The notes under the pieces: generated by a model
Databases searched by the model: none
What the model was told of the DNA's origin: nothing
Seen by the model: the letters and a program-made list of their open reading frames with translations, nothing else
Shown here: positions 5,913 to 61,667 of the stretch, in pieces
How the letters are laid out: each line of letters opens with the position of its first letter
How positions within the stretch are numbered: the stretch's first letter is position 1
DNA from: an uncultured Gemmatimonadota bacterium
GTDB taxonomy: Bacteria > Gemmatimonadota > Gemmatimonadetes > Palauibacterales > Palauibacteraceae
DNA: 64,000 bases
Reading direction: 5' to 3'
NCBI GenBank assembly: GCA_964510615.1
Contig: CAZEBA010000010.1
Span: 15,754-79,753 of the forward strand
Made by a program: the position numbers and the translations under genes

Positions 5913-6027
5913 GGTGCTCAGCTCGGCGTGGGGGTCACGGGTTCCTTTCGGTTGCTATTCGGTATAGCGGAAGATCCCGACGGGCGCAAATCTTCTACGA
6001 CCTCGACCCGTGACAAGGAGAAGGTCC

Positions 6028-11431: not shown

Positions 11432-11580
11432 GGAATGAACTCCGACTCGCAGTGAAGGCCCGTCACGGGCTCAGGTTCGCGTCAGGATTTCCAGGATTGT
11501 ATCAAGAGGTCGCGGGAGCGGGGTGGATTCGAGAGAATGAATAACTGCGGTCGAGAAACGGGTCAAGCCGGGAGGAGCAG

Positions 11581-11937: not shown

Positions 11938-11964
11938 GGTGGCCCGTCCGCCTCGACGGGTTCG

Positions 11965-12900
11965 CTAGAACAGCCGCACGCGCAACCAGCGGAAGGGAGT
12001 CGAGGCCAGCTCCGCCCGTACGGTGTCGGCGCGGGCGCGAAACAGCCGAACCTGGTTCTCGATCTCACGGTCGTGCAGGGCCCGGCCGGCGCTTCCACGA
12101 GCGGCGGAAAGGTGGTCCTGCAGCGACTCCACGCTCGCCGCCAGCGCCTCGAACCGGGATCCGAGGCGCACCCGGAGCCGCTCCGAGGCGCGTGACTCCA
12201 GCACCGACAGTTGCTCACGCGTGCGTCGGAGCCGAGAGGCCAGCGCGGTGTCGGTCAGGAGCTTGCCCAGAGTGCCGGAGCGTGCGTTGAGCCGATTGAG
12301 CTCCGAGAAGCCGGCAAGCACCTCCCGGAGCTCAAGGCCGGAGCGCGAGAGCCCGGCGATCGGCCCCTCCGCCTCGTGCAGGCTTTCCGCCAGGCGCGAG
12401 GCGATCGGCCGCAGTTCGTCGGCCACGATCCGGAGGCTGTCGGCGAACTTCTCGACTTCTCGCATCGTCACCGACAGCCGAGCGGTCAGGGTGTCGCCAA
12501 AGTCGTACGGAGGCGCGCCGGCTCCGCCGGGCTCGATGTCGACCACGAACGGGGCCAGCAGACCCGATGGCTTGATGGTCGCCCGCGCATCGCGCCGCAG
12601 CGCTCGGGCCGGCACCCGATCGAGCACGGCCCGGATCTCGAGGCTGGGGGACCGCGACTCGGCGCCGACGAAACGGATGTCGGTGATTCTGCCGGCCTTC
12701 ACCCCGGCCACCCAGACATCGCCCCCTGGTCGGAGCTCGCCCGCCTCCGCCGCCACCAGCACGAGAACGGCCCCGCTCTCGACCGCCAGGCGGGCCTCGT
12801 CCATGAAGAAGATGGCCGCGGCGGCGCCTGCGAGAACGCCCAGTTGCAGGACGCCTCTCCGCAGATCGAGCCACCTACGCGGTCTCCGATCCGAGCGCAT
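11965..12900 (-). CDS. MCE/MlaD-family protein (membrane-anchored, C-terminal coiled coil)
   Basis: Start ATG (cat at 12898-12900). N-terminal TM LQLGVLAGAAAAIFF; Mce motif GGDVWVAGVKAGRITDIRFV. The longer ORF to 13569 would overlap ssb and is rejected. Confidence 0.65.
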   Translation of the reverse strand: MRSDRRPRRWLDLRRGVLQLGVLAGAAAAIFFMDEARLAVESGAVLVLVAAEAGELRPGGDVWVAGVKAGRITDIRFVGAESRSPSLEIRAVLDRVPARALRRDARATIKPSGLLAPFVVDIEPGGAGAPPYDFGDTLTARLSVTMREVEKFADSLRIVADELRPIASRLAESLHEAEGPIAGLSRSGLELREVLAGFSELNRLNARSGTLGKLLTDTALASRLRRTREQLSVLESRASERLRVRLGSRFEALAASVESLQDHLSAARGSAGRALHDREIENQVRLFRARADTVRAELASTPFRWLRVRLF

Positions 12901-46267: not shown

Positions 46268-48187
46268 ATGGCGAAGTGGCGACTGCCTGAGTTGCTCAGC
46301 AGCCTCTCCGCCCGGGTCCCCTCATCCGAGGCGGCGGCGGGCAAGGACGAGCCGGAAGTTGCGGCGGCGGAGGAGTCGAGCCGTTTCGCCGAGCGACCGG
46401 TGGACCGGTCGGTGCTCTGGCTGCCCGGTGGTTGGGGGGAGCACGACAGCTCCCGACCGTACCCCTACGAGCTCTTCGTCGAGCAGGATCTGCTCCGGGC
46501 CGTCGCGGCTCATGCGCAGGAGGAGGTCGACGGGAGCTATGGCCTTCTGACCGGCCGCCTGCTCACCTGCCGGCGTACCCGAATCCCGTTCGTCCACGTC
46601 GAGGCTGCCCATCGCTCGGAAAACCCGCTTCCGACCGACGAAGACGTCGCGAGCTTTCGGGAGTTCTTTTGGTCGGTGCGCGAGAAGGCCGGTCGGCGCG
46701 GGCGAGTGCTGGTCGGCTGGTATCATACCCACTCCCTGCTTGGCCTCCAGCTCTCCGAGCGCGACCGGCAGCTCCACGTGACCCACTTCCACGACGACTG
46801 GTGCTGCGCGCTCGTCGTGGTGACCCGCCACGGAAGAGCCGAAGGCGGCTTCTTTCAACGTGACCGCGGCGACATCCTGTTTCGCCGATCCACTCGTCCG
46901 TTCCACGAGGTCGTCAACCAGAAGGTCCGGGCAGGCGGCGGCCCGTACGTGACGACCGTCTCGTGGGAGAATTACTGGACTCACGAGCCCGTACTGTTCG
47001 CGAGAAAGCCGGGTGAGCCGGAATCCCGCGGCGGCCGGTGGTACTGGCGCCGACGCGATCCGTCCAGCCGGACGACCACGCACCTGCCGGGGCTGGGTTC
47101 CGGGACCATCGCAAGCGAGAAACTGGACGGCCTTCGCGATCAACCTGCCCCACCCGACGAGGCCACGAGCCGGAAGCCGGAGAAGCCGAGCTACCAGCCG
47201 GCGCTGGGTCGTCCGCGGCGGGCCGAGGACGACGCCGCCTTACCGGAACAGGCCAGGCACCAGGGTCCGCCGTCGGCCGACGCGTGGGCCCAGTGGGAGC
47301 AGGGACGGGAAGTCCGCCGAGCTCGCACAGAGAAGCGACTGAAGCCGGACAGGCAGCAGGCGGCCGCCGACGCGACTCAGACTGAGGCCGATGCGGATCG
47401 GCGTGCGCGGGCGAGGCTGGCCGCGCGGGCGGCGGCGGAAGCGGCAGCTCGGGCGGCGGCGGAGGCGCTGGGCATCGAGAGCGAGACCGATGCGGTCACT
47501 GCGGAGGCCGTGTCGCGGGCAGAGAGGGAGGCGGCCGCCCTGGCATCGAGGCGGCGCCCTCCGCCCGAAGTCGAGCCCGCGCACGAGGTGTCGGAAGCCG
47601 TCGAGGCGGATGTTGCGGGCACGGCTGTCTCGGCGACCGAGGTGGACACGACCCGGGCGGCCGAGGTGGCGGCGGAAGTCGAGGTGGCGGAAGTCGAGGT
47701 GGCGGAAGTCGAGGTGGCGGATGGGTCCGAGGTGGCGGACGAGTCCGAGGCACCGACCGAGGTAGAGGCAGTCCCCGAAGCCGAAGGCGTGCCAGAGAGC
47801 CAGATCGCAGCTGCCGAGTCTCCGCCGGGCGAGACGGTTCGGAGGCCGTCCGGTGACCAGGAGACTCGCGCGGCGCAGCTCGAGCTGAAGGAGCCGACGG
47901 AGCCTACGGAGGTCGCCCGCGTGCCTGCCGAGCCGGACGGCGTTGCGGAGGCCGAGGTAGCCGAAGTCGAGTCTCGCGCCGAGCCGGCTCCGGCCGGGAA
48001 GCTCGCGATTCCGGGGCGCAAAGCAGACGTTGAAGCCGCCGACAAGCGGTCACCGAGCGAAGCCGACTTCGTGATGCCGCCGATGATCATTCCTGATCCT
48101 CCTTCGCGCGTGTCGTCACGGAAGTACGCGCTTTTGATCGGAATTGCGGTGCCGATTGCCGCCCTGCTGTGGTGGCTCTTGGTTTGA
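46268..48187 (+). CDS. JAMM/MPN+ metalloprotease-domain protein with long Ala/Glu-rich repetitive region and C-terminal TM anchor
   Basis: JAMM motif EVDGSYGLLTG...VGWYHTHSLLGLQLSERD (E...HxHx7SxxD). Tandem VAEVE repeats from a 15-bp DNA repeat near 47690-47740. C-terminal YALLIGIAVPIAALLWWLLV. Confidence 0.6.
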   Translation: MAKWRLPELLSSLSARVPSSEAAAGKDEPEVAAAEESSRFAERPVDRSVLWLPGGWGEHDSSRPYPYELFVEQDLLRAVAAHAQEEVDGSYGLLTGRLLTCRRTRIPFVHVEAAHRSENPLPTDEDVASFREFFWSVREKAGRRGRVLVGWYHTHSLLGLQLSERDRQLHVTHFHDDWCCALVVVTRHGRAEGGFFQRDRGDILFRRSTRPFHEVVNQKVRAGGGPYVTTVSWENYWTHEPVLFARKPGEPESRGGRWYWRRRDPSSRTTTHLPGLGSGTIASEKLDGLRDQPAPPDEATSRKPEKPSYQPALGRPRRAEDDAALPEQARHQGPPSADAWAQWEQGREVRRARTEKRLKPDRQQAAADATQTEADADRRARARLAARAAAEAAARAAAEALGIESETDAVTAEAVSRAEREAAALASRRRPPPEVEPAHEVSEAVEADVAGTAVSATEVDTTRAAEVAAEVEVAEVEVAEVEVADGSEVADESEAPTEVEAVPEAEGVPESQIAAAESPPGETVRRPSGDQETRAAQLELKEPTEPTEVARVPAEPDGVAEAEVAEVESRAEPAPAGKLAIPGRKADVEAADKRSPSEADFVMPPMIIPDPPSRVSSRKYALLIGIAVPIAALLWWLLV

Positions 48188-48355
48188 TCCACTGAGCGGA
48201 TTCGTCGACGCCCGTCGGGGCTTTGTCCGTGTACCAACCGGCCGCGATGCGATGACCTGCTCCCCCACCTGTTGCTGGAATTCCGTTCCCGAAGGGACCC
48301 GCGAACACGGCGGTGCTTCTGTTGCCGATACTCTTCCCCCCAAAGCCAGGGCGCC

Positions 48356-49384
48356 ATGACGAATCAGATCCGGAGCGTGGATAGGAGAGGGGACGCTGCG
48401 CGACCACAGGTTTCCGTTGTGGTTCCCATGCACAACGAGGCGGCCAACATACCGATCTTCTACGAGCGGTGCTCCGGCTCGCTCGAGCAGCTGGCGGTCG
48501 ATTGGGAGATGATCTGCATCAACGATGGGAGCACGGACGGCACGGTCGAGTGCGTCCTCCGACTACGAGAATCCGATTCTCGCGTGAAGCTCGTCGATCT
48601 GACGAAAAACTTCGGCAAGGAAGTGGCGCTGGCGGCCGGCCTCGATCACGCCCTCGGCGATGCCGTGATCGAGATCGACGCAGACCTCGAGCATCCGCCC
48701 GAAGTGATCGAGGACATGTTGCGAGTCTGGGGCGACGGTGCGGAGATAGTCTTCGCCGTCCGTCGGAACCGGCGTTCCGAAACGAGGACGAAGCGTTTCC
48801 TGGCAAACAGCTTTTATCGGGTGTTTGGAAAGCTGACGAGAATGGAAAAGGCCGAGGAGCTGAGCGATTTCTGCCTCCTGGATCGGAAGGCAGTCGATGC
48901 CCTCCGCCAGGTTCGCGAGCGCAGCCGGTTTACGAAGGGTCTGGTGGCTTGGATGGGCTATCGCCGCGGACTCGTCTATTACGACCTCGGAGCGAGGCAG
49001 GCGGGAGGTTCCAATTGGAGCTACTGGCGGCTTTGGAATCACGCGATCGATGGCATCACCGCGTTTAGCAGTGCCCCCCTCAAGTCCTGGACGTACGTGG
49101 GTACCTCGATCGCCGTGCTCTGCCTGTTTTACGCGGCTTTTATTGTCATGCGTACACTCATTCTGGGGATCGCGGTACCGGGATACGCCTCGTTGATGGT
49201 GGGTGTTCTCTTCATGGGCGGGGTGCAGTTGATCAGCCTCGGCGTGCTTGGAGAGTACATGAGCCGAGTCTACAGCGAGGTCAAGCAACGGCCTCTCTAC
49301 CTGGTCCGAGAGCGTTACGGGATCGCTGTGAGCGGCGAAGAGTCCCAGGAGCGGCAGCCGGTTGCGAGCCCCCGCATCCATTGA
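48356..49384 (+). CDS. Family-2 glycosyltransferase (polyprenol-phosphate sugar transferase, GtrB/DPM1/ArnC-like) with C-terminal TM helices
   Basis: ATG at 48356. VSVVVPMHNEAANI...CINDGSTDGT...; DxD-type motif EIDADLEHPP; two C-terminal TM helices. Confidence 0.8.
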   Translation: MTNQIRSVDRRGDAARPQVSVVVPMHNEAANIPIFYERCSGSLEQLAVDWEMICINDGSTDGTVECVLRLRESDSRVKLVDLTKNFGKEVALAAGLDHALGDAVIEIDADLEHPPEVIEDMLRVWGDGAEIVFAVRRNRRSETRTKRFLANSFYRVFGKLTRMEKAEELSDFCLLDRKAVDALRQVRERSRFTKGLVAWMGYRRGLVYYDLGARQAGGSNWSYWRLWNHAIDGITAFSSAPLKSWTYVGTSIAVLCLFYAAFIVMRTLILGIAVPGYASLMVGVLFMGGVQLISLGVLGEYMSRVYSEVKQRPLYLVRERYGIAVSGEESQERQPVASPRIH

Positions 49385-49411
49385 TCCAGTAGGCAGCCCG
49401 GCAACCGCGCC

Positions 49412-50302
49412 ATGCGTCTGGACTTTCAAGCGGATGATTTCGGCGCCACGTCAACCGTAACGTCCAACATCGCAGCAGCTTGGCGGGAGGGCGTACTGAC
49501 TGGCTGTAGCGTCCTGGCGAACGGTGAGGCACTGGAAGAGGCGGCTCGGGTGGCCAAGTCTTCACCGGCCGGATATCCTCGCATTGCAGTACATCTCAAT
49601 CTGTCGGAGGGAGCTCCGTTGCTCGATCCGGCGGAGGTGTCCGCCCTGGTGGACTCTGCGGGCCGGTTTCACCTTGGGTTCCTCGGTCTTTGGGGGCTTT
49701 GGTTCCGATCGCGTCGTCGCGAGAGACAGGCCCTTCTCCGCCAGGTAGAAGACGAATGGCGAGCACAGATTCAGCGGGTGTGCGACGTCTTCTCGCCATG
49801 TCCGGTGATCGGCATCGACGGACACATCCACGTCCACATGCTGCCATTCCTCTTTCCTATCGCCGCCGAGCTGGCACGGGTTTTCAACATCTCGGAGATC
49901 CGCGTCTCGCACGAGGTGCTGGACCTCAGATACGCGCGCACGCTCCACCCTGGACTGGCCGGGAACCTCGTCAAGCATCTCCTCCTGGCTTTCCTCTCGC
50001 GCCAGGCGCGGCGAACGGCGCAAGATGCCGGACTGGGCGGCTCAGAGAGAATCGCCGGCATCCTGCATGTGGGGCGCTTGGAGGTAGACACGCTCCAGGC
50101 GGCTATCGGCGCAGCGCGTCGCCGGCACGTGAGCTGGCTGGAGATCGTTTGCCACCCGGGGCGCGCCGCGCCAAGCGAGGCGGGGCGATGGAAGCGACAA
50201 CCATGGCTTCTACGCTTTTACCTGGATCAGCGACGAGATGTGGAGCGGGATGCGCTGATCCGCTTGCGCTCCCTTCTCGACGAGGAAGCACGCGACCGAT
50301 GA
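49412..50302 (+). CDS. YdjC/ChbG/HpnK-family carbohydrate deacetylase
   Basis: N-terminal MRLDFQADDFGATSTVTSNI (ADDFG signature) and conserved His cluster IDGHIHVHMLP. Confidence 0.75.
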   Translation: MRLDFQADDFGATSTVTSNIAAAWREGVLTGCSVLANGEALEEAARVAKSSPAGYPRIAVHLNLSEGAPLLDPAEVSALVDSAGRFHLGFLGLWGLWFRSRRRERQALLRQVEDEWRAQIQRVCDVFSPCPVIGIDGHIHVHMLPFLFPIAAELARVFNISEIRVSHEVLDLRYARTLHPGLAGNLVKHLLLAFLSRQARRTAQDAGLGGSERIAGILHVGRLEVDTLQAAIGAARRRHVSWLEIVCHPGRAAPSEAGRWKRQPWLLRFYLDQRRDVERDALIRLRSLLDEEARDR

Positions 50303-50559
50303 GCCGCACCCGCCATCTTGGGTGCTGCCAGCCGCCGGCACGCGGTCAACCAATGCTTGCTTGCACCGGACAGTGTGCTCAAACTCACAACTCCGCAACG
50401 CCGTTCGGCTGGCGAAAAAGCTGGAACGGCGGCTGCGGGAGCTCCGGCAAACTTGACTGGTTGCTCAGGACCCAGTGCTATGTGGTCGACAGGTAGATCA
50501 GCTCGGAGGTGGACCAAGCATCATGACGGTCCCTCTGCCGCCGCGACCGGGCTCCCAGC

Positions 50560-51828
50560 TTGACTCTCGCCAGGCTTCCCCACATACGATGGCCGCAAGT
50601 GCTATCTGTCCTGTTGGTGCTGATCCTCCTGTTTTTCTACGCTGTTCCGTTCTCGCGCCCCCCGGGAGGCTGGCCGCTAGGTGAGCTGCTGGTCAACTAT
50701 CAGGGAGGCTTTGTTCGCCGAGGTTTGTTGGGCGAAGTCGTTTTTCGTATCTCGCTGGCTCTAGACCTTTCTCCGCTCTTCCTGCTCCGCTGGCTGTTTG
50801 TTGCCCTGTCGGTCGTCAACATCCTCGTGTTTGTTTCTCTAAGCGCCGTCGAAGAGCGGCTGCTGAAGCGGGCCACCCTCCTTCTCGCCCCCGTATTGCT
50901 GCTATTCCCAGTGTATGACTTGGCCGCCTACGGTCGGAAGGACCTCATCACCACTGCGCTCCTCGGCGTCCATGCATTGATTGCGCAGCAAACGTTCCGT
51001 CGCCGATTGAGCTTCGGCACGTACGGTACATTACTCGCAGCTCTCATCGCTCCCCTCTTGATGGTGCAAATCCTGACTCACGACGTACAGATCTTTTTCA
51101 TTCCCTTCCACCTCGCCATCACTGTTGCCGTGCTGCAAGATTGTGATGACGCCACCCCACGTCGGGTGCTCTGGCCGTATGTGCCGGTAGCCGCTGTTTC
51201 GGTTCTACCCGTCCTGTTCAACGGTACGAAGGAGACGGCGATTGCAGTCTGCAATTCATGGCATGCCCTGATCGATCAGTTCGGGTATTGTCGTGTCAAC
51301 AGCGATAGCTTCAGCGACCTGGTGCACAGCGGAATGAAGGCGCTGGGGTGGGATTTGCGGAAGCCGATCGGGTACACTCTTCGAACCGTTCGGAATCGCG
51401 AGGCGGCAAGCCTGTTCTTCGTCGCAGCAGCGCTCAGTCTGGTTCCGTATTTCATTTTCTACAGGATGTCCGATGTTTGCCGTGCCGGCGCACCGGTTCC
51501 AGATCGGCTACAGCGGCTGTTGCGGTTCTCCCTGCTGGCGCCGCTGGCGCTGTTCATCATCGGCGGATGGGACTTCGGGAGGTGGCTGCACCTGATTACC
51601 AGTGGCCTGTTCGCGTTGACGTACTGCAGACCGCGACTCGTGCAGAGCCGCGTGCGGTTCGACTCGGTGCTGGAGGGAGCCGGATTCCGGGGGCTGCTTC
51701 CGTACCTACTATTGATCGGTTTGTACGTCGGTTTCTGGTACGTCCCGCATTGCTGCGAGCCGAGCAGCCTGCAGGGTGGGATGTTCGAGGCCGCCAGTGC
51801 CTCATTCCGACTTCTGTTCGGTGGTTAG
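50560..51828 (+). CDS. Hypothetical polytopic membrane protein
   Basis: 422 aa with ~10 predicted TM segments; lower local GC than the flanks (by eye). Confidence 0.5.
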   Translation: MTLARLPHIRWPQVLSVLLVLILLFFYAVPFSRPPGGWPLGELLVNYQGGFVRRGLLGEVVFRISLALDLSPLFLLRWLFVALSVVNILVFVSLSAVEERLLKRATLLLAPVLLLFPVYDLAAYGRKDLITTALLGVHALIAQQTFRRRLSFGTYGTLLAALIAPLLMVQILTHDVQIFFIPFHLAITVAVLQDCDDATPRRVLWPYVPVAAVSVLPVLFNGTKETAIAVCNSWHALIDQFGYCRVNSDSFSDLVHSGMKALGWDLRKPIGYTLRTVRNREAASLFFVAAALSLVPYFIFYRMSDVCRAGAPVPDRLQRLLRFSLLAPLALFIIGGWDFGRWLHLITSGLFALTYCRPRLVQSRVRFDSVLEGAGFRGLLPYLLLIGLYVGFWYVPHCCEPSSLQGGMFEAASASFRLLFGG

Positions 51829-53321
51829 TTGGGTACACAGGCGTCGAGTCGATAGATCAAGTAATAGGCGCTCGCCGCGATCCGATCGCACTCGGCCTCG
51901 ACGAATGCCAGAAGGTCGTCGTGGCGGCGCTTGAACTCTTCGAGGTCCGTGACGACCAGGTAGTCGGCCTCCGAGTCGAGGGCGGCGAACCGAAGGAACA
52001 GGTCCGGCGGACCCGCGTCAGGTTGCGGATCACGACCTCGGGACGACGCGCGCCGCCAGAAGTCCCCGGCCAGCTCGCCGTAGTATGAGAGCGGCACGCC
52101 GTAATAGGGGGAGATGAACACGACGTCCGTGCTGTGATCTACGATCTCTCCGATTTCTCGAGCCAGTTCTGGTGATTCGATCGTGCCGCCCCTCTCGCGA
52201 TGCTCCCGGACTTCGCCGAGGACGGCACGCAGCCCTATGCCCGAGGTAGCTACGAGAAGGGCCACGACGATTCGGCGATCTACTCGGTCCGCAAGGTAGG
52301 TGGCGATGACTTCCAGCACGGGGGTCGTGGCAATGCCAATCGCCGGGAGTAGCACCAGGTGGTAGTAACCAGCGAACCGAACGTGATAGGCGAACACCGC
52401 CAGGAACATGGCGTAGCCGGCGATGAGGCCGTATACGAGTTCCCTCGGCTGCTCCTTCCGAAGCCCGGGCAAACCGATAAGGGCGAGCAGGCAGGGCACG
52501 ACACCGAGAGCGTGTATGGCGGTCGAGGGCCACGACCGCCAGAAGCCGCTCGTAAGCAGGAGGTGGGGGAAGAAGGTCTTACTCGCCTTTTGGGCGAGCA
52601 TGTCGGAAAGGAAGATGCCGTACACGTAGTACGTCGTCCCGACGGCGAGGGCGGTCGATAGGAAAAGCGCGGCGTCGGCATAGCGGGGCGTGCGGGTCCG
52701 TAGTGCCCGCGCCAGCCAGAGGGCGAGGAAAGCGGCCAAGAGGCCGAAAAGGCACAGGGGCTTCACCAGTATGGCGACGCCTGACACGAAGGCGGCGAGC
52801 AACAGGCGCGCCGTCGTGGGCTGCTCGTGATGGCGAAGGATCAGGAGCAAACCGGCCATGAACACCAACATCATGAGGGGCTCGGGAACGAAGACGGCAC
52901 TGATCTCGATGCCCAGCGGCAAGAACAGGTAATAGGCGGTCACCGCCAAGGCGACGCCTGCCCGCGCGAAGCGGCGCAGGATCTGAAAGAATAGGATGCC
53001 CCCGACGAGCCAGAAGCCGGTCGACAGCGTGCTCGGAATCCTGAGTTGCTCCCGTCCGACAAGCCCGTAGACTCGGGCGACCAGCGCCTCGAAGATCGGA
53101 GGTTCCAAGACATCCTGGCGGGCCACGGCCGCCGCCGCTGCTCGAGTCCGCCACTGCGGCACGGGACGGTCGGCGAAGAAATAGCTCCTGGCGATCAATG
53201 CCGAGCGATACTGCCGCTCGGCGATGATGGTGGGCCGTTCGATGTCCAACCTCGCGCCGAGCGCCGCCGCGAGGAGCGCAACGAGAAAGATGGTCGAGAT
53301 CTTCTCCGACGAGACTGGCAT
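51825..53321 (-). CDS. GT-C fold glycosyltransferase, family 39/ArnT-like (PMT_2)
   Basis: Multi-TM N-terminal region with ArnT/PMT-like loops, plus a soluble C-terminal domain. Start taken at MPVSSEKISTIFLV. Confidence 0.6.
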   Translation of the reverse strand: MPVSSEKISTIFLVALLAAALGARLDIERPTIIAERQYRSALIARSYFFADRPVPQWRTRAAAAAVARQDVLEPPIFEALVARVYGLVGREQLRIPSTLSTGFWLVGGILFFQILRRFARAGVALAVTAYYLFLPLGIEISAVFVPEPLMMLVFMAGLLLILRHHEQPTTARLLLAAFVSGVAILVKPLCLFGLLAAFLALWLARALRTRTPRYADAALFLSTALAVGTTYYVYGIFLSDMLAQKASKTFFPHLLLTSGFWRSWPSTAIHALGVVPCLLALIGLPGLRKEQPRELVYGLIAGYAMFLAVFAYHVRFAGYYHLVLLPAIGIATTPVLEVIATYLADRVDRRIVVALLVATSGIGLRAVLGEVREHRERGGTIESPELAREIGEIVDHSTDVVFISPYYGVPLSYYGELAGDFWRRASSRGRDPQPDAGPPDLFLRFAALDSEADYLVVTDLEEFKRRHDDLLAFVEAECDRIAASAYYLIYRLDACVPN

Positions 53322-53401
53322 GGCAGAATGGTACAACATGAGGGTCGGCCGCGCGTGCGCCGCCGGCGCGTTGCGGCACCATGGGTACGTCCAGCGACCG
53401 G

Positions 53402-54667
53402 ATGAAGAGTCTGCGGCCGTCTAACGCGGCGGTTCTGATCGTCGCAACGGTCCTCTCTCTCGCCCTGGTCGAGCTCACCGCCCGGCTGCTCGTGGAGCCA
53501 TCCGATGTGTCGGCAGGGCGACTGCTCGGAGTGGAGCTTCCTCCGCTCGAGGCATTTGCGAAATCGCCGACGGCCTGGGACACGTCGGGAGAGAGAGCCG
53601 AGCGACTCGTCGATGACGGTCCGCTCACGTACGGCGATCTATACGGTATCCAGCGGGAGGATTCGCTGCTCGGATATACGGCTCTCGAGGGTACGCGCTC
53701 CCGAAATGGCTGGTGGGAGTCCAACGAGATCGGCGCGCGAGCCAGGGTCTCTTCAGCCCACGCCGAGCGAGGCCGTCTCCTCGTGTTTGGCGAGTCGTTC
53801 GCCCAGGGAAGCCGCGTCAAGCAGGAGGATGCCTGGGCCTCGGTACTGGACTCCCTGTGCGCCGAGTACGAGGTCATGAACTTCGGCGTTGACGGCTACA
53901 GCATGGGGCAGGCATACCTTCGCTACCGTGTCGTGGCATCGCGCATCGAACACGAGGCTGTACTTCTGATGTTCACCCCGAGCGTGGATCTGTGGCGCGA
54001 TCTGAATTCTCTCAGAGCCCTTCGTGGATGGATAGGCGTCCCGCTGGTGCCGCGCTTCGTGCTCGACGGCGAGGGCCTCAGGGTAGCAGAAAGGCCCTAC
54101 CCGAACCTGGCGACCGCCCTCGAAGCGAACCAGGGGGCGATCTCGCCGCCCCTGCACGCTTATCTACTTCGATACGACCGGTTCTATTGTGTACCGTTGT
54201 ACAAGGTGCCGCCCGTGGTGGGTGACTTCATGCTCTACAAGATCGCGGCGGCTGGATGGTGTCGCATTCGACTGATCCGCTTGAAGTCGGAGCTTCTCGA
54301 GCCGAAGGGGGAAGCCGTGCGGCTCGTGCAGGAGATCTTCGCGGCTGCGCGTCGCGAGGCAGAAGAGAACGGGGCGCGCTTCGTCCTGGCGATCCTGCCG
54401 GCACCGAACGACTTGAGTACTCGTGTGGCCAGCAAAGCGTACGCCAAGCAGCTCGACGAACTGGGGCAGCTCTTCTGCTCGGAGACTCCATGTATCGACC
54501 TGACCGAGGATCTGTCCTCGCTCCCGCCCGGGCAGCTTGATTTCGGTGCCGACGGGACGCACTACGGCCCCCTGGCGAATCGGCGGATCGCGGAGAGCAT
54601 AGCCGCGAGGTTCGGCTGTCACCAAGCGATTGGCGGGCGGCCAGCGCATGAGCCGGTCGAGGAGTGA
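53402..54667 (+). CDS. Membrane-anchored SGNH/GDSL-like hydrolase (putative)
   Basis: N-terminal signal anchor VLIVATVLSLALVEL; GDS-like block LLVFGESFAQG; distal DGTHY (DxxH-like). Tentative family assignment. Confidence 0.45.
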   Translation: MKSLRPSNAAVLIVATVLSLALVELTARLLVEPSDVSAGRLLGVELPPLEAFAKSPTAWDTSGERAERLVDDGPLTYGDLYGIQREDSLLGYTALEGTRSRNGWWESNEIGARARVSSAHAERGRLLVFGESFAQGSRVKQEDAWASVLDSLCAEYEVMNFGVDGYSMGQAYLRYRVVASRIEHEAVLLMFTPSVDLWRDLNSLRALRGWIGVPLVPRFVLDGEGLRVAERPYPNLATALEANQGAISPPLHAYLLRYDRFYCVPLYKVPPVVGDFMLYKIAAAGWCRIRLIRLKSELLEPKGEAVRLVQEIFAAARREAEENGARFVLAILPAPNDLSTRVASKAYAKQLDELGQLFCSETPCIDLTEDLSSLPPGQLDFGADGTHYGPLANRRIAESIAARFGCHQAIGGRPAHEPVEE

Positions 54668-56010
54668 TGCCACGTCACGCTGGTCGAACCGCCCAATGGC
54701 TGCACGCGGTGGTCATCGTCGTGGTCATGAACGCGATCTTCGCCGTCGTCGGCATGTTGGTGGCCACGGTGCAACGCGGGCCCCTAAGAGATCGAGTCAG
54801 GGACGCTTTTGAATCCGGCGATCTGATTCAAGCGGACTGGTCATCGTTCGACATCCGGAGAGGCTCGAATCAGTACGTTGAGTGCATCGTCCTCCAGATG
54901 GTCACCAATCCCGTCGACTCTCCGCTTCGATATGTCGCGGGGCCGATCGTGCGTTCGGTCGATCTGAGCGGGGCCGATCAGTGCCGGACGCTCTACCGAT
55001 TGACCGTGCGGGCGGAACCACCAGACGAGTTCCGGAGCTTTCGTTACACGCGCTACTGGCACGGATACAACGTATTCGCCGCTCTCTACCTGAGAGTCGC
55101 CAGCCTTCGAAGCGCCAGGCTCATGCTTGGAATCGGGCTGTTTGGCAGCCTGGTTCTGCTTGTTCTGGTGTCCATCAGGCAGCAAAACTCTCGATTACGT
55201 TCACTTGGCCTGGCAATAGGTATCTTCGGCCTCTTCTGCTGGGCCATCCCGTACTTCGGCCAGGCCTTCAGTCACGGTCCCGGCGACACGATCGTCGTCA
55301 TGGGGCTGGCCGGTCTCATTGCGTTCCCCGGTATTTGCTCGAACCCGCGGCGGCTGACCCTCTTCTGCGCACTCTACGGAACGCTGGTCGTCTACCTCGA
55401 GTTCATGACGGGACCGTTGCCAACGGCTGCCGGGTTCCTCTTTCCAGCGGTCTACGCTGCAAGGGGAACTGCGGTAGGCATCGATTCGAAGGAACAGTGG
55501 CTCACGTCGATCCGAGCCTTGACGGCGTTCGGGCTCGGAGCGGGCCTTACGGTGGTCCTCAAGCTCTTGCTCTCGGTCGCGGTCTTCGGTCCCGGCGCTC
55601 TCGATTCGTTTGTCAGCAACTTCGTTTACTATGCAAGACCGGCAAGCTCAGACGCGCCGCTGCCGACGTTCTTGTTGCCTTTCGGCCGACTGTATCGGAA
55701 GGGCACCACACTGACCTACGGCAGCGAGGTGGGTGCCCAGCTCTTGTTTGCCTCGGCTGTTGGATCGTGGGTGGCGTCGGCCCTGCTCGTCGCCCTAAGG
55801 AGAAGGCCGAGGAGTACCGACGATCTGCTCGCGCCCCTGACCGGTGTCCTGATCGTGATCATCTGGATCATGCTCTTCCAGACACACACCTTCGGCCACG
55901 CCGTGTTCATGGTTCGCATGATGATCGTGCCGATATCTCTCGGTTGGACAGCCGTGGCCTGGCAGCTCGGTCGAGAGCATCCCCCCTTGCCTCCTTCCCG
56001 TCCCGCGTAG
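54664..56010 (+). CDS. Hypothetical polytopic membrane protein
   Basis: 448 aa with ~10 TM helices; ATGA overlap with the upstream gene; no recognisable motif. Confidence 0.5.
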   Translation: MMPRHAGRTAQWLHAVVIVVVMNAIFAVVGMLVATVQRGPLRDRVRDAFESGDLIQADWSSFDIRRGSNQYVECIVLQMVTNPVDSPLRYVAGPIVRSVDLSGADQCRTLYRLTVRAEPPDEFRSFRYTRYWHGYNVFAALYLRVASLRSARLMLGIGLFGSLVLLVLVSIRQQNSRLRSLGLAIGIFGLFCWAIPYFGQAFSHGPGDTIVVMGLAGLIAFPGICSNPRRLTLFCALYGTLVVYLEFMTGPLPTAAGFLFPAVYAARGTAVGIDSKEQWLTSIRALTAFGLGAGLTVVLKLLLSVAVFGPGALDSFVSNFVYYARPASSDAPLPTFLLPFGRLYRKGTTLTYGSEVGAQLLFASAVGSWVASALLVALRRRPRSTDDLLAPLTGVLIVIIWIMLFQTHTFGHAVFMVRMMIVPISLGWTAVAWQLGREHPPLPPSRPA

Positions 56011-56045
56011 TACGTTTCGGTTACTTTCGGGTTTTATTCGGTTTC
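56009..56045 (+). promoter_or_regulatory. Candidate operator/promoter upstream of imuA: near-palindrome AGTACGTTTCGGTTACT plus TTTCGG(G)TT direct repeats
   Basis: Unusually AT-rich stretch (…AGTACGTTTCGGTTACTTTCGGGTTTTATTCGGTTTCAGT…) about 50-85 nt upstream of the imuA start; SOS cassettes are normally LexA-controlled. Confidence 0.25.
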
Positions 56046-56092
56046 AGTCCGGGACCGGGGTTTTCTGACCGTCGGGTGCTCAGGAGGGGAAG

Positions 56093-56803
56093 GTGTCTCG
56101 CGCGGTCGCGCTCCAGGAGCTCGAGCGGAGGATCGAGGGGGTAGAGGGCCGCCCGGCGGCCGGGGTGGATACGGTGCCGACGGGCCTGGTCCCGCTGGAC
56201 GCGTTGCTGCCGGAGGGAGGGCTGCCGCGCGGGCGGGCGACGGAGTGGTCCGGTCCGCGCTCCTGCGGGAAGCTGGCCCTTCTCCGCCGTGCCTTGAGCG
56301 GGTTTCACGCGCTCGGGGAGCCGGTGGTGCTGATCGATGCCCTCCATCTGGCCCACGCGCCGGATTGGCTGGAGCTGTCGGAGCGCGGCCCGGCGTTCTG
56401 GGTCATCCGCCCGCCTCCCGGAGAGGCAGCCTGGTGTGCCGATCTGGTGCTTCGCAGCGGGGCGTTCGGGGCGGTCGTTCTCGACGTGGTCGATGGTCCG
56501 CCGTCGGGAGTCGAGGTGCGTCGGAGCGTGGGCGTGCGGCTCCAGCGACTGGCCGAGGAGGCGGGCTCCGTCCTGATCCTGCTCGCGGAGCTTCCCGTGG
56601 CCGGCCTCCGGCTCCGTTTCCGGCCGGGCCAGGTCCGACCCGATGACGGCTCTCCCTTCGGCCCGTTCCTCCCGTCGAGCCGTCCCGTGCGGGTGCAGGT
56701 GGGCAGGGGAAGGTGGGTGGAGCTTCCCGTGGCGTGCCCGCCACCGGCCCTGCGGAGCTCGGAAACCGTGGACCTCGGCCGGGATCGGAAAGGGCCGTTG
56801 TGA
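56093..56803 (+). CDS. imuA: ImuA (SOS-mutagenesis cassette protein, RecA/SulA-like)
   Basis: GTG start after AGGAGGGGAAGG; conserved LERRIEGVEG...VPTGLVPLDALLPEGGLPRGRATEW...VLIDA... pattern of ImuA. Confidence 0.7.
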   Translation: MSRAVALQELERRIEGVEGRPAAGVDTVPTGLVPLDALLPEGGLPRGRATEWSGPRSCGKLALLRRALSGFHALGEPVVLIDALHLAHAPDWLELSERGPAFWVIRPPPGEAAWCADLVLRSGAFGAVVLDVVDGPPSGVEVRRSVGVRLQRLAEEAGSVLILLAELPVAGLRLRFRPGQVRPDDGSPFGPFLPSSRPVRVQVGRGRWVELPVACPPPALRSSETVDLGRDRKGPL

Positions 56804-58215
56804 GCCGGATCGCCTCGGTACGGGTGGAGCGTTCCGGGGCCGGGGCACGGGATCTCATGGGGCCGCTGCTGCGGGGGAGCCCCCGTGTCATGCTCGTGGG
56901 ACCGGAGTCCGGTCGGGTCGATGCGCGCGGGTGGGAGCGTCTGGGCGGCGAGCCGGCGCTCGGCCGGGTTCTCATCGAGGCGCTCGAGGAAGCCGGGATG
57001 CGCGGCATCGGCGTCGGGATCGGGGATGTGGCGGTGGTGGCCGATGCCGCGGCCCGGCTGGCTGCTCCGGGTCCGATCATCGTTCCATCCGGCGGGGGGC
57101 GGGAGTTCCTCGCCCCGCTGCCCCTTGGGATCCTGCCGATCTCCGAGGAGCTGTGCGAGGAATTTCGAGCCCTCGGGTGGGTGCGGATCGGCCAGCTGGC
57201 CGAGCGGGAGCGGAGTGAGCTGGAAGCGCGCTTCGGTCCGGCCGGACTCGAGGCGCACCGGTGGGCGTGTGGGGAGGACGAGCGCGCCTTCCGTCCCCTC
57301 CCGCCGCCGGAGCGACCGGAGGTGTCGCTGGAGCTGGAAGGCGCGGTGACGGCCCTGGAGCCGTTGCTGTTCGCACTTCGCCATCTGCTGGCCAGGCTCT
57401 GCGCCGGCCTGACCGGAGGGTCGTGCGTCTCCGAGCTCCGACTTCGCCTGGAGCTGGATGGAGGTGGCCGTCGCGAGGCGACGGTCGTGCCGGCGCGGCC
57501 GACCCGTCGGGAGCCGTTGCTGTTCGATCTCTGCCGAGCGGCGCTGGAGCGCTCGGAGGAGGGGGGAAGGCTGGCAGCCCCGGTGGTCGGCCTCGCGCTG
57601 GAGCTCCGCGAGACCGCGCCCGCGGAGGCCCGGCAGGGAGACCTGTTCCGGCGTGACTGGCGGGTGGGGGGAGGATGGGACGACCCGCTCGGGGCGGCGA
57701 TCGCGCTCGCGCGACTTCAGGCACGGTTGGGGGAGAACGTGGTCGTCACGCCCGGCGTCCGCGCGGATCACCGACCCGAGAGCCGTAGCGCCTGGATCTC
57801 CGTGACGCCAGAGGTTCTCGGAGCCCGGAACGGCGCGTCCGGAGCCCGGGTCGGTCCGTCCGGAGCCCGGGTCGGTCCGTCCGGGGCGCATGCCGGCATG
57901 CCCGAAGCCGCCACGGCTGCCCTGCCCGAAGCCGCCACAGCCGGCCTGCCCGCCGTCCTCCGGCTGCTGCCCGAGCCCGAGCCCGTTCGCGTGCGGTCGG
58001 AGGCGGACCGGCCCATCGAGCTGTGGGACGACCGGGGCCGGCACGAGGTGGTCGCGGCCGAGGGACCGGAGCGGCTGTCGGGGGACTGGTGGAAGGATCC
58101 GTACCGGCGCGAGTACTTCCGCGTCTGCACCTCGGGGGGAGAGCTGCTCTGGCTCTTCCGCGAGTACCGCCGCAGCGGGGAGCTGCGATGGTGGCTGCAC
58201 GGATGGTGGGACTGA
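56800..58215 (+). CDS. imuB: ImuB (inactive Y-family polymerase-like protein); appears N-terminally short
   Basis: GTGA overlap with imuA. Y-family thumb/HhH region LPLGILPISEELCEEFRALGWVRIGQLAERERSELEARFGPAGLEAHRWACGED. The proline/alanine-rich C-terminal part contains 24-nt tandem repeats (ARVGPSG x2). Confidence 0.7.
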   Translation: MSRIASVRVERSGAGARDLMGPLLRGSPRVMLVGPESGRVDARGWERLGGEPALGRVLIEALEEAGMRGIGVGIGDVAVVADAAARLAAPGPIIVPSGGGREFLAPLPLGILPISEELCEEFRALGWVRIGQLAERERSELEARFGPAGLEAHRWACGEDERAFRPLPPPERPEVSLELEGAVTALEPLLFALRHLLARLCAGLTGGSCVSELRLRLELDGGGRREATVVPARPTRREPLLFDLCRAALERSEEGGRLAAPVVGLALELRETAPAEARQGDLFRRDWRVGGGWDDPLGAAIALARLQARLGENVVVTPGVRADHRPESRSAWISVTPEVLGARNGASGARVGPSGARVGPSGAHAGMPEAATAALPEAATAGLPAVLRLLPEPEPVRVRSEADRPIELWDDRGRHEVVAAEGPERLSGDWWKDPYRREYFRVCTSGGELLWLFREYRRSGELRWWLHGWWD

Positions 58216-61200
58216 GGGCGCAGTTCACCCGCGTGGAGGCACCCACCTACGTGGAGTTGGCCGCACGCTCGGCGTTCTCGCTCCTCATCGGGGCGTCCAC
58301 GCCCGAGGCCCTGGCCGAGCGAGCGGCCGAGCTGGGAATGCCGGCGCTGGCGCTGGCCGACCTGTTCGATCTCGGGGGGATCGTCCGCTTCACCCGCTGC
58401 TGCGACCGGGTCGGCGTCCGCCCGATCATCGGCGCCACGGTCCGGGTCGTCCCGCCCCCTGCGGTCATCCCGCCTTCGGCGGGCGGGCCGCACACCGCCA
58501 CACTGGCCCGGCTTCACCTCGTTCTGCTGTGCAGGAATCGAGGGGGATACCACAACCTCTGCGGGCTGATCACGCGGGCGCGGCTCTCGAACCCGCGCGG
58601 CCACCCGCGGCTCGGCCTCGGGGATCTAGAGGGACGGACGGACGGGCTGATCTGTCTGTTCGGGACGACGGATCTTCCGGATCCGCACCCGCAGGCTGCG
58701 ATTCTTGCCCGCATCGGGAGCGCCTTTCCGGGCCGGTTCCACCCGGTTCTCGAGCACCACGGTCTGCCGGAGGACGCGCGCCGCTGCGCGGCGTGGATCG
58801 CCTACTCGCGAGCGACGGGCCTTCCCTGGCTCCCCGCGAACGCTCCGCGGTACGCGCGGCCATCCGACCGGATCGTGCACGACGTGCTCACCTGCATCCG
58901 CTACGACACCACCCTGGACGAGGCCGGCGACCGCCTCCTGCCGAACGGCGAGTGGTATCTGAAGTCGGCCGTGCAGATGAAGCGTCGCTGGTGTCAGGCA
59001 CAGGGCGTCTCCCTCCGTGAAGGGCGACGAGGTCCTCTTCCGCAAGCTGGCGGACGGCTGGTCTTCGGAGCCTCCGACGGGAGTCTCCTCAGGCCGTCCA
59101 AGGCTTGCTCCGGAGGATCTCGCTCGCCACTTGCGGAGACACCCTCGGGTCCTCGGTCCGGCGATGGTCCGCCGCCAGCTCGCGAAGCGGGTTTCCCGCT
59201 ACCGGCCGAGTGCGACTGTCTCGGCTGCGAGGGGTTGCGGCGAACGGCCGAGGTCGCGGCGCGCTGCCGCTTCCGGGTCGAGGGACTCAAGCCGCCACTC
59301 CCGGTCTTCCGGGGCTTCGGCGAGCGGCAGCCGATGCCCGGGGACGGCCGGTCCGGTTCCCGCGACTCCCACGCCCTGCTGCGGGGGCTGGTGGAGGAGG
59401 GGGCGCGAAGACGGTACGGTGACCGCTTCGGGCCCGAGCACCGGCGCCAGATCGACCACGAGCTCGGCATCATCGGCCGCCTCGGCCTCAGCGACTACTT
59501 CCTGATCATCCACGACATCGTCCGCTTCGCCAACCAGCGGGACATCCTTGTCCAGGGGCGTGGCTCGGCCGCCAACTCGGCGGTCTGCTACTGCCTGGGC
59601 ATCACGGCCGTGGACCCGGTGGGGCTGGACCTCCTGTTCGAGCGCTTCCTCTCGGAGGAGCGGGACGAGGCGCCGGACATCGACCTGGATATCGCCCACA
59701 ACGACCGGGAGGAGGTGCTCCAGTACGTCTACCGGAAGTACGGCCGCGAGCACGCGGCGATGGTATGCGAGGCGATCACCTACCGGGGACGGATGGCCGT
59801 ACGGGACGCGGCCCGGGTGCTGGGCTTCTCGACGACCCAGGCGGACCGTCTGGCAGCGGAAGCCGACCGGAGCGAAGCGGCCGACGCGGCCGACCGCCTG
59901 GCCGACGGAGGCGTGGTCCGGGCCGGGCTCGATCCTCGGCACCCCCGCGTGCCGGCGCTGATCCGGGCCGTACGAGGCCTGAACGAGCTCCCCCGCCACC
60001 GCTCGATCCACGTCGGAGGCTTCGTCCTCTCGGGGCGGCCGATCGGCGAGGTGGTGCCGGTGGAGGCCGCCTCGATGCCCGGCCGCACCGTGATCCAGTG
60101 GGACAAGGACGACCTGGACCTTCCGGGCCTCATCAAGGTCGACCTCCTGGGCCTCGGCATGCTCACCGTCCTCCAGGCGGCGATCCGTCACATTCGGGAG
60201 ACGCGCGGGGTGGAGCTCGACCTGGCCCGGCTTCCTCCCGATGATCCGGTCGTCTACGACATGATCTGCGAGGCCGACACCATCGGCGTGTTCCAGATCG
60301 AGTCGCGCGCCCAGATGAACACCCTGCCGCGTGTCCGCCCGCGCTGCTTCTACGACCTGGTCATCGAGGTGGCGCTCATCCGGCCCGGTCCGATCCAGGG
60401 TGACATGGTGCACCCTTACCTGCGGCGCCGGAACGGCGAGGAGCCGGTCGCCTACCTGGATCCGCGGCTGGAACCGGTGCTGAAGCGAACGCTCGGCGTC
60501 CCGCTCTTTCAGGAGCAGGGGATGAAGGTGGCCGTGGTGCTGGCCGGCTTCACCCCCGCGCAGGCGGACAAGCTCCGGCGGGCGATGGGGTTCAAGCGCT
60601 CGCACCAGGCGATGACCGAGGTGGGCGAGGAGCTGGCCGCGGGGCTGGCGAGGAACGGCGTCCGGCCGGACGTTGCCGCCCAGATCTTCAAGCAGCTCAC
60701 GGCGTTCGCCAACTACGGCTTCCCCGAGAGCCACTCCGCCAGCTTCGCCCTGCTCGTGTACGCCTCCGCCTGGCTGAAGCGCTACTACGCGCCGGAGTTC
60801 TTCGCCGCGATGCTGAACGCCCAGCCGATGGGCTTTTACGCGCCCGCCACCCTGATCCGGGACGCCCAGCGGCACGGGGTTCGGGTGCTCCCCGTCGATC
60901 TGGCCTGTTCGGCCTGGGACTGCACGTTGGAGCCTGCGTCCGGCAGCGAGGGGCAAGCGCCCGCCCTGCGGCTCGGGCTCCGGCTCGTTCGGGGTCTGGG
61001 CGCGCGGGCGCGCGACCGGCTGCAGCGAGCGACCGAAGAGGAGCCCTTCTCCTCGGTAGAGGATGTGGTGCGCCGGAGCGGCCTCGAGCGGGCGGCCCTC
61101 CGTCTGCTGGCCGAGGCGGGTGCGTTCCGGACTCTGTGGCCAGGACGTCGCGAAGCTCTCTGGGAGCTGCTGCGCCAGTTTCGGGGCGATGCGGGTCCGC

Positions 61201-61667
61201 TGGCCCCCCATCGCGCTCCCCGCCGCAGAGGCCGCCGACTTCCACGCATGAGCCGATTCGAGCGGGTGCTCGCTGACTACCGCACCCTCGGGCTCTCGAC
61301 CGAGGGGCATCCGATGGAGTTCGTGCGGCCGATGCTGCGCACACGGGGCGTGCTGAGCGCCGCGGAGGTGCGAAAGTGCTCGGCCGGCACCGAGGTGACC
61401 GTGGCGGGACTTGCCATCACCCGGCAGAGGCCGAGCACCGCGAAGGGCATCATGTTCCTCACGCTGGAGGATGAGACAGGGCTGGCGAACTTCGTCGTGA
61501 TGCCGGATGTGCAGGCTCGCTACCGAGACGCCCTGCTGGCGCACGTTCCGATCCTGCGGGGGGTGGTGGAGAGCGAGAGCGGCGTCGTGAACGTGCTCGT
61601 CACCCGCGCAGGGGTCCTGCCGTTGGGCGACCGCACACCGGTCGTGCGAAGCCGAGACTTCCGGTAG
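58203..61667 (+). CDS. dnaE2: Error-prone DNA polymerase III alpha-type (DnaE2/ImuC)
   Basis: PHP N-terminus; Pol III alpha palm/fingers (…RGSAANSAVCYCLGIT…PDIDLDI…; …GVFQIESR…; …VALIRPGPIQGD…); OB fold at the C-terminus. The overlap with the imuB end matches the usual cassette order. Confidence 0.9.
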   Translation: MVGLRAQFTRVEAPTYVELAARSAFSLLIGASTPEALAERAAELGMPALALADLFDLGGIVRFTRCCDRVGVRPIIGATVRVVPPPAVIPPSAGGPHTATLARLHLVLLCRNRGGYHNLCGLITRARLSNPRGHPRLGLGDLEGRTDGLICLFGTTDLPDPHPQAAILARIGSAFPGRFHPVLEHHGLPEDARRCAAWIAYSRATGLPWLPANAPRYARPSDRIVHDVLTCIRYDTTLDEAGDRLLPNGEWYLKSAVQMKRRWCQAQGVSLREGRRGPLPQAGGRLVFGASDGSLLRPSKACSGGSRSPLAETPSGPRSGDGPPPAREAGFPLPAECDCLGCEGLRRTAEVAARCRFRVEGLKPPLPVFRGFGERQPMPGDGRSGSRDSHALLRGLVEEGARRRYGDRFGPEHRRQIDHELGIIGRLGLSDYFLIIHDIVRFANQRDILVQGRGSAANSAVCYCLGITAVDPVGLDLLFERFLSEERDEAPDIDLDIAHNDREEVLQYVYRKYGREHAAMVCEAITYRGRMAVRDAARVLGFSTTQADRLAAEADRSEAADAADRLADGGVVRAGLDPRHPRVPALIRAVRGLNELPRHRSIHVGGFVLSGRPIGEVVPVEAASMPGRTVIQWDKDDLDLPGLIKVDLLGLGMLTVLQAAIRHIRETRGVELDLARLPPDDPVVYDMICEADTIGVFQIESRAQMNTLPRVRPRCFYDLVIEVALIRPGPIQGDMVHPYLRRRNGEEPVAYLDPRLEPVLKRTLGVPLFQEQGMKVAVVLAGFTPAQADKLRRAMGFKRSHQAMTEVGEELAAGLARNGVRPDVAAQIFKQLTAFANYGFPESHSASFALLVYASAWLKRYYAPEFFAAMLNAQPMGFYAPATLIRDAQRHGVRVLPVDLACSAWDCTLEPASGSEGQAPALRLGLRLVRGLGARARDRLQRATEEEPFSSVEDVVRRSGLERAALRLLAEAGAFRTLWPGRREALWELLRQFRGDAGPLAPHRAPRRRGRRLPRMSRFERVLADYRTLGLSTEGHPMEFVRPMLRTRGVLSAAEVRKCSAGTEVTVAGLAITRQRPSTAKGIMFLTLEDETGLANFVVMPDVQARYRDALLAHVPILRGVVESESGVVNVLVTRAGVLPLGDRTPVVRSRDFR

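Follow-up and report, generated by a model that had tools for sequence, protein, structure and literature searches.

The DNA analysed here (the window) is a stretch of 64,000 nucleotides from an uncultured Gemmatimonadota bacterium (assembly GCA_964510615.1, contig CAZEBA010000010.1, positions 15,754 to 79,753 of the forward strand), with a GC content of 68.5%. At positions 56093-61667 it carries the genes imuA, imuB and dnaE2, which probably constitute (probability about 0.8) a damage-inducible (SOS) translesion mutasome operon under LexA-type control exerted through direct repeats. The cassette is an ordinary SOS-type imuA-imuB-dnaE2 mutasome operon of the Gemmatimonadota. Two features are specific to the lineage: an ImuB that has lost its finger subdomain throughout a clade, and a particular version of the direct-repeat SOS box.

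Organization of the cassette

The three genes are adjacent and co-oriented (+), in the order imuA, imuB, dnaE2, which is also seen in relatives:

56093-56803, + strand: imuA, a RecA-like protein of 236 residues; GTG start, with a GGAGG ribosome-binding site 8 nt upstream
56800-58215, + strand: imuB, 471 residues, a catalytically dead Y-family homologue without finger subdomain; GTG start
58233-61667, + strand: dnaE2, an error-prone C-family polymerase of 1144 residues counted from GTG 58233; alternative start at ATG 58203

A previous sequence-only reading had described this region as a three-gene translesion cassette with overlapping genes. The identity of the cassette stands, as does the overlap between imuA and imuB, in which GTG 56800 overlaps the imuA stop codon as GTGA. 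Whether imuB and dnaE2 overlap is decided by the choice of dnaE2 start: they do so with ATG 58203, and are separated by a 17-nt gap with GTG 58233. The latter is preferred as the predicted start, because the N-terminal length then agrees with that of L203 and of other DnaE2 relatives. L203 (ENA ERZ28654224, scaffold_8) is the closest relative among the loci compared, which are designated by L numbers; its cassette DNA is 91% identical to that of the window. In L203, a Glycos_transf_2 gene (11458-12231) sits exactly between imuB and dnaE2, and no separate box precedes dnaE2 there. The close homologues of the window ImuB all come from Gemmatimonadota metagenome-assembled genomes.

A direct-repeat box upstream of imuA

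The intergenic region preceding imuA contains the following elements:

55987-55992, + strand: inferred -35 hexamer TTGCCT of the imuA promoter, aligned with a conserved cTTGcc found about 35-40 nt before the box in about 50 related loci
56011-56016, + strand: inferred -10 hexamer TACGTT, 18 nt after the -35 hexamer, at the position of TATCAT or TATCTT in relatives and inside a 17-mer palindrome (see below)
56016-56020, + strand: extra TTCGG repeat, 10 bp before the core operator and abutting the -10 hexamer, common to L005, L007, L010 and L050
56026-56041, + strand: core operator TTCGGGTTTTATTCGG, with two TTCGG direct repeats (at 56026 and 56037) 11 bp apart, of the form xTTC-N7-xTTC; candidate LexA (SOS) box
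56048-56052, + strand: degenerate fourth repeat TCCGG, 11 bp downstream of the core

The region upstream of imuA was extracted from 51 related loci. In 50 of 52 loci, the 260 nt preceding imuA contain the exact box; the other two carry it before a splB gene that precedes imuA. The consensus of 50 sites is ACTTTCGGnTTTTnTTCGGTat, that is TTCGG-N6-TTCGG, equivalent to xTTC-N7-xTTC with an 11-bp period. Across 824 kb of Gemmatimonadota loci, the box was matched 85 times on the + (cassette) strand and 3 times on the - strand, with about 2.8 matches expected from a first-order Markov model. It usually lies 9-12 nt after a clear promoter (cTTGcc-N17-TAtcaT), with the start codon about 20 nt further on; in Gemmatimonadaceae and at many metagenome sites it is found between the -35 and the -10 hexamers. 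The box also precedes dnaE2 wherever this gene is split from imuB (L011, L014, L023, L035, L040, L044, L045, L068), and is present before a radical-SAM gene of the splB type (Pfam Radical_SAM; L063-L067, L072, L074, L075) as well as before full-length imuB (L053, L055, L056, L071). In L203, the core box is kept while spacer and flanking bases change. The extra repeat is degenerate there (TTGCGG), and its role is uncertain.

The sequence-only reading had placed a LexA-type operator in the AT-rich patch upstream of imuA. Such an operator is very probably there, in the form of the TTCGG repeats at 56026-56041, to which that reading had referred only briefly (as TTTCGG repeats), but the dyad that had been singled out, the imperfect palindrome AGTAC-N7-TTACT (AGTACGTTTCGGTTACT, 56009-56025, 68 nt before imuA), is not conserved. 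That this palindrome is itself the operator is highly improbable. It is present exactly, and once, in the intergenic region; however, a search for further copies in the window yielded 6 matches with up to two mismatches, against 4.45 expected, which is chance frequency and no enrichment. Its right arm reads CGATT in L203, where extra repeat and palindrome arm are both mutated, and in relatives with about 70% ImuA identity its left arm is replaced by GCTATC, which resembles a -10 hexamer. The 17-mer is accounted for by the inferred -10 hexamer, the extra TTCGG repeat and a TTACT leading into the core. The operator had also been regarded as one without known consensus. This view has to be given up: the box is of the known direct-repeat type GTTC-N7-GTTC of Alphaproteobacteria (PMC4951493), and the same box occurs before lexA genes of Patescibacteria.

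A terminator-like hairpin followed by a T-run is present in the imuA leader at 56037-56059 (region to 56070). It overlaps the last operator repeat, and its sequence is conserved in L203. A role as attenuator was considered for this hairpin and rejected, as it folds no better than shuffled sequence (z +0.96 in the window, z +1.5 in L203).

The probable regulator of the box

An exact-pattern scan of metagenomes with TTCGGNNTTTNTTCGGTAT returned at least 121 sites in at least 120 loci. Among the matches listed, 61 of 121 box sites are directly followed by SOS-type genes: 16 imuA, 10 splB, 9 dnaE2, 6 lexA, 5 imuB-like genes, 3 genes of stand-alone ImuB-C, 2 dinB, 2 alkA-like genes, 1 ruvB, 1 gene of a radical-SAM/HhH protein and 6 members of a recurring family of unknown function. 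The same pattern applied to viral contigs as a control gave 27 sites, none of which adjoins an SOS-type gene. The lexA genes that carry the box encode bona fide LexA proteins, with LexA_DNA_bind and Peptidase_S24 domains (Pfam). When six box-associated LexAs were used in a profile search, the named matches with a phylum label among the best 120 all belonged to Patescibacteria. A Patescibacteria LexA regulon is the subject of Sanchez-Osuna, Barbe and Erill (2017, cited in PMC7739468); its motif is reportedly identical to this box.

Direct-repeat LexA boxes (GTTC-N7-GTTC) are established in Alphaproteobacteria (PMC4951493, PMC9578287), and recognition of direct repeats by LexA has also been cited for Acidobacterium, Patescibacteria and Balneolaeota (PMC4951493, PMC7739468, PMC9578287). 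A literature search found no paper describing a LexA motif for Gemmatimonadota. Because of its association with SOS genes, its occurrence before Patescibacteria lexA and the known direct-repeat LexA boxes, TTCGG-N6-TTCGG is most probably the Gemmatimonadota SOS box, of the GTTC-N7-GTTC type, to which LexA would bind in this phylum.

Several observations weigh against this assignment and against the operon being under LexA control. Neither lexA nor recA was found in the window and 80 Gemmatimonadota loci, where the only RecA-like match is imuA itself. No lexA was found in the high-GC metagenome loci, and no Gemmatimonadota LexA appeared among the phylum-labelled matches in the best 120 of the LexA profile search. 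At the promoter, a strict sigma-70 scan of the window does not call the -35 hexamer and gives the -10 hexamer as a weak match to consensus; the window promoter is placed by alignment with relatives only. The sequence data establish the identities of the genes, their domain content, the deletion throughout the clade, the degeneracy of the PHP site, and how the box is conserved, where it lies and which genes it accompanies. LexA as the binder in Gemmatimonadota, induction by damage and complex formation by the three proteins are inferred.

An alternative is that the TTCGG direct repeat serves another regulator than LexA, for example a damage-response repressor specific to the phylum. In favour of such a regulator, no Gemmatimonadota lexA was seen adjoining a box and, among the metagenome matches listed, lexA box sites occur only in contigs below 58% GC. 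However, at least eight genuine lexA genes have an identical box upstream, the architecture of the box agrees with that of the known direct-repeat LexA boxes, and in Gemmatimonadota it precedes imuA-imuB-dnaE2 and splB, operons that belong to core LexA regulons elsewhere (PMC4951493). A non-LexA regulator is accordingly unlikely, and LexA is retained as the probable binder.

Two observations were made among the loci carrying the box. A recurring protein of 200-230 residues (MPK..F[N/D]PAEY..V.ERI.LFY..P.G..., no Pfam match) is encoded directly behind the box in six high-GC contigs (L088, L110, L115, L124, L179, L187), and is a candidate for an uncharacterised SOS gene. In L189, an open reading frame of 466 residues on the - strand, with the box upstream, encodes a LexA of the Patescibacteria type fused to a C-terminal extension of about 260 residues. 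Sequence resemblance suggests that this extension may be a DNA methyltransferase-like domain.

ImuB has lost its finger subdomain

ImuB displays a Y-family polymerase fold but is devoid of the catalytic carboxylates. The sequence-only reading had it begin close to the thumb/HhH region and lack about 100 N-terminal residues of the palm. The protein is indeed short, but its start was misjudged: strand β1 and the second half of the palm are present, and the loss is internal, affecting the fingers. DinB profiles align from about ImuB residue 40 only, to about profile position 107, in keeping with the impression of a late start. Alignments were made with the full-length ImuBs of distant Gemmatimonadota (L053, L055, L056 'Ca. 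Kutchimonas', L071), with those of alphaproteobacterial plasmids (L001 Neorhizobium, L002 Acidiphilium) and with Dpo4. They show that strand β1 (RIASVRV) is retained in the window ImuB, aligning with RIACLRIP or RVVSVFLP of the references. After β1, about 75-90 residues are replaced by a linker of about eight residues. The chain then continues with the second half of the palm, beginning at the helix that precedes "LLxGSPRV...DARGW". We take the missing segment to be the finger subdomain of Dpo4, approximately residues 11-77. The N-terminus M-x-RIASVRV is common to many ImuB homologues, which supports GTG 56800 as the imuB start. The Pfam IMS domain, which scores 46.2 and 31.8 bits in full-length ImuBs, is absent from the window ImuB even at E-values up to 1; the protein has no complete Y-family core of palm and fingers.

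Besides β1 and the second half of the palm, the window ImuB keeps the thumb, the little finger, the clamp motif, a RecA-NT-like helix-strand element and the ImuB-C β-barrel. The clamp motif is located as follows:

57634-57648, + strand: codons of QGDLF (ImuB residues 279-283), a probable β-clamp-binding motif

In the surrounding R-Q-x-D-L-F (278-283), R278, Q279 and F283 are invariant among 58 homologues, and D281 and L282 nearly so; QGDLF is presumably the β-clamp motif, as judged from established knowledge of ImuB. In the predicted structure, a helix (296-310) followed by a strand (316-318) resembles the RecA-NT motif, and a β-rich C-terminal domain (387-470) is modelled with high predicted local distance difference test values (pLDDT). 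Residues 388-470 match plasmid ImuB/DUF6504 proteins with 42-45% identity, and a tblastn search of plasmids with ImuB gave a match limited to this C-terminal ImuB-C/DUF6504 part. A sequence search of the PDB with ImuB returned a marginal match to Pol IV only, and reached no solved ImuB.

The reduced architecture is shared. The ImuB family has 270 members in the protein database, with 72 invariant residues. In tblastn searches with finger segments, no match was obtained in any locus with an ImuB at least 45% identical to that of the window (L003-L052, L054, L061), and the segment was detected in 26 loci that are more distant and belong to Gemmatimonadaceae, other Gemmatimonadales and Kutchimonas. 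The finger loss is fixed across a whole Gemmatimonadota clade, and this clade-wide pattern therefore excludes a pseudogene or a mis-annotation for the short ImuB. An artefact of this kind, whether from a wrong start codon, a frameshift or gene decay, might have been suspected since NCBI and other gene callers begin ImuB even later, at M31 (441 residues), and since no Pfam domain is recognised in the short protein. It is nevertheless hardly credible: upstream of imuB the frame is closed and the DNA is taken up by imuA, a GTGA start-stop overlap is what translationally coupled genes typically show, the fold is predicted with confidence, about 50 genomes hold the same architecture at 45-76% identity with the 72 invariant residues noted above, and tblastn found no finger-coding sequence in the loci with a short ImuB.

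ImuBs of this kind have been described already, and the internally shortened ImuB is not a new type of protein. A 2026 survey reported that many ImuBs have deletions of structural elements, but that the parts in contact with DnaE2 (thumb, little finger and ImuB-C) are always kept (PMC12926913). The window ImuB agrees with this pattern, both in the deletion of elements and in the retention of these three parts. The two studies differ in scope: the survey was based on complete genomes, with no mention of Gemmatimonadota in the main text, whereas here the deleted part is identified as the finger subdomain and the loss is assigned to one clade.

Two in-frame tandem repeats were detected in imuB with Tandem Repeats Finder at 57819-57952 (+), of 21 nt x3.1 and 24 nt x2.5. 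They encode three copies of the 7-residue unit GARVGPS (57819-57884) and 2.5 copies of the 8-residue unit PEAATAAL (57892-57952). Both fall in a disordered linker (residues 344-383, pLDDT <50), and they probably vary in length between strains.

DnaE2 and ImuA

DnaE2 scores 1195.7 bits with the NCBIfam model NF004225 "error-prone DNA polymerase" (cut-off 939), and the polymerase aspartates are present in PDIDLD and VDLLGLG. Its PHP domain was compared, through a HMMER alignment checked by multiple alignment, with that of Thermus aquaticus (Taq) Pol III alpha. The nine metal-ligand positions are presumably H11, H13, D20, H47, E72, H95, C145, D212 and H214 of the Taq enzyme, as taken from the PHP motif pattern. 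At these positions DnaE2 has A R I L T H T A R; one His is retained and eight of the nine ligands are replaced. The sequence-only reading had pointed to this replacement (HxH to AARSAFSL, DHD to ADLFD), and had on this ground suggested an enzyme inactive in PHP and proofreading. Both strings are confirmed in DnaE2, and the alignment upholds a PHP site that is predicted to be inactive, the enzyme being without the set of nine metal ligands of a PHP proofreading exonuclease. DnaE2 relatives of the same clade are likewise degenerate, with for example S R D T E R D A R. Eight of the nine ligands are kept in the Gemmatimonadales DnaE2 of L068, and all nine in a metagenome DnaE2 (L144).

Such degeneration of the PHP ligands is, according to the literature, the norm in DnaE2 and no peculiarity of the window enzyme. 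According to Timinskas et al., most DnaE2s, the actinobacterial subgroup aside, are without an intact PHP site, and proofreading is expected to be absent (PMC3919608). In the models of the 2026 survey, ImuB-C docks mainly onto the PHP domain (PMC12926913), and this modelled role would explain that the domain persists despite its lost ligands.

A low-complexity insertion of about 75 residues follows the PHP domain of DnaE2 (residues ~252-332 counted from GTG 58233, positions ~58985-59225). It is bounded by RRWC and CDCLGC, and is absent in L011 and L014. The CDCxGC cluster also occurs in L203 and L035. The four cysteines might form a small metal-binding clasp.

ImuA matches Pfam RecA with 38.8 bits (gathering score 27), and the NCBIfam model ImuA_translesion with 55 bits, far under its cut-off of 150. 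Its identity is supported by orthology and position, imuA orthologues being found in 69 loci. Most Gemmatimonadota ImuAs display a canonical Walker A motif, GxxxxGK[T/S]. In the window ImuA this motif is GPRSCGKL (residues 53-60, 56249-56272), and in the window subclade (L004, L005, L007, L010, L050 and the window) GK is followed by M or L. ATPase activity of ImuA may thus have been lost in this subclade.

Comparison with characterised systems

The imuA-imuB-dnaE2 (imuABC) operon of Caulobacter crescentus and other Alphaproteobacteria has the same three genes in the same order (PMC9578287, PMC4951493). It is controlled by a GTTC-N7-GTTC LexA box. Also shared are a direct-repeat SOS box with an 11-bp period (xTTC-N7-xTTC), which in the window lies at a putative promoter, an inactive ImuB and a degenerate PHP site in DnaE2. 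Three differences are seen. The half-site of the Gemmatimonadota box is extended to TTCGG(T/G), and its first base is usually T, C or A, not G. The Neorhizobium and Acidiphilium ImuBs possess fingers, which are lacking in the window ImuB. Finally, the ImuA of Gemmatimonadota resembles RecA more closely, and in most of the phylum its Walker A motif is nearly intact.

The ImuA'-ImuB-DnaE2 system of Mycobacterium tuberculosis has the same components and presumably the same logic (PMC10421592, PMC11791113, PMC12926913). In this mutasome, ImuB is the clamp-binding hub, with a RecA-NT motif and ImuB-C, and DnaE2 is the catalytic subunit (PMC10421592, PMC11791113, PMC12926913). The PHP site of M. tuberculosis DnaE2 is mostly intact, as in a minority of DnaE2s (PMC3919608), whereas the window DnaE2 keeps one of the nine ligands. 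The mycobacterial LexA box is a palindrome, GAAC-N4-GTTC, unlike the direct repeat found here, and mycobacterial ImuB is of the ImuB2 group, unlike the window ImuB.

In contigs of the Patescibacteria type, the same box (TTCGG-N6-TTCGGTAT) is found before lexA, dinB, imuB-like and ImuB-C genes. This LexA regulon is that of another phylum and has another content, the genes concerned in Gemmatimonadota being imuA, dnaE2 and splB.

Proposed mechanism and significance

Transcription of the cassette would start from a weak sigma-70-type promoter (-35 at 55987-55992, -10 at 56011-56016). A repressor bound to TTCGG direct repeats one helical turn apart, at and just after the -10 hexamer (core 56026-56041), would hold this promoter off. 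This repressor would most probably be LexA, the box being read as a variant of the GTTC-N7-GTTC SOS box. Upon DNA damage, RecA would stimulate LexA to cleave itself, which would release the promoter, and ImuA, ImuB and DnaE2 could then form the usual complex. ImuA would be its RecA-like partner, and DnaE2 the active polymerase, presumably without intrinsic proofreading now that the PHP metal site is gone. ImuB would act as an inactive Y-family scaffold that has dispensed with its fingers and has kept the thumb, the little finger, the clamp motif, the RecA-NT-like motif and the ImuB-C barrel.

A broader interpretation, to which we give roughly even odds, combines these elements at the level of the phylum. 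Gemmatimonadota, the SOS response of which is undescribed in the searchable literature, may use a TTCGG-N6-TTCGG LexA box that Patescibacteria and unassigned high-GC metagenome lineages also possess, which would reflect either an old and widely shared LexA specificity or a lateral spread of lexA. One large clade would in addition possess a streamlined mutasome, with a fingerless ImuB, a DnaE2 without PHP ligands and, in the window subclade, an ImuA without the P-loop threonine. It would provide a natural "minimal ImuB", in which the fingers are dispensable for mutasome function.

For Gemmatimonadota, these results provide a concrete SOS box that can be tested: TTCGG-N6-TTCGG, in many cases with TAT directly after it. 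It allows the LexA regulon to be reconstructed in this phylum and its specificity to be compared with those of Patescibacteria and Alphaproteobacteria. The clade-wide fingerless ImuB amounts to a natural deletion experiment, which supports a scaffold role exerted via the thumb, the little finger, the clamp motif and ImuB-C, and gives structural studies of the mutasome a smaller construct to work with. Current understanding is not overturned by any of these findings.

Genomic neighbourhood

A second exact box, TTCGGTTGCTATTCGG followed by TAT, is found at 5947-5962 (+) and is the only other exact match in the 64 kb. It lies between two divergent genes identified by Pfam, gyrA (3375-5912, -) and a tandem-Usp gene (6010-7113, +). 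Through this box, a possible further site of the regulon, the regulator of the cassette could also act on gyrA or on the gene of the stress protein; comparative support for it was found in none of the loci compared.

On its upstream side, the cassette is flanked by a variable region:

47566-55982, strand not assigned: lower-GC variable island of 8.4 kb with genes of the membrane/envelope type, including 53381-54667 and 54664-56010

Compared with L203, the island is non-homologous or only 69% identical, and gene 54664-56010 is missing from L203. High identity to L203 resumes at 55983, four nt before the inferred -35 hexamer, which places promoter and operator within the conserved block of the cassette. 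The surroundings of the cassette are a turnover hotspot for envelope-type genes. That the cassette abuts a lower-GC island had been noticed from the sequence alone, and the values agree: GC is 62.8% in the island (47566-55982), 72.2% in the cassette and 69.1% in the rest of the window.

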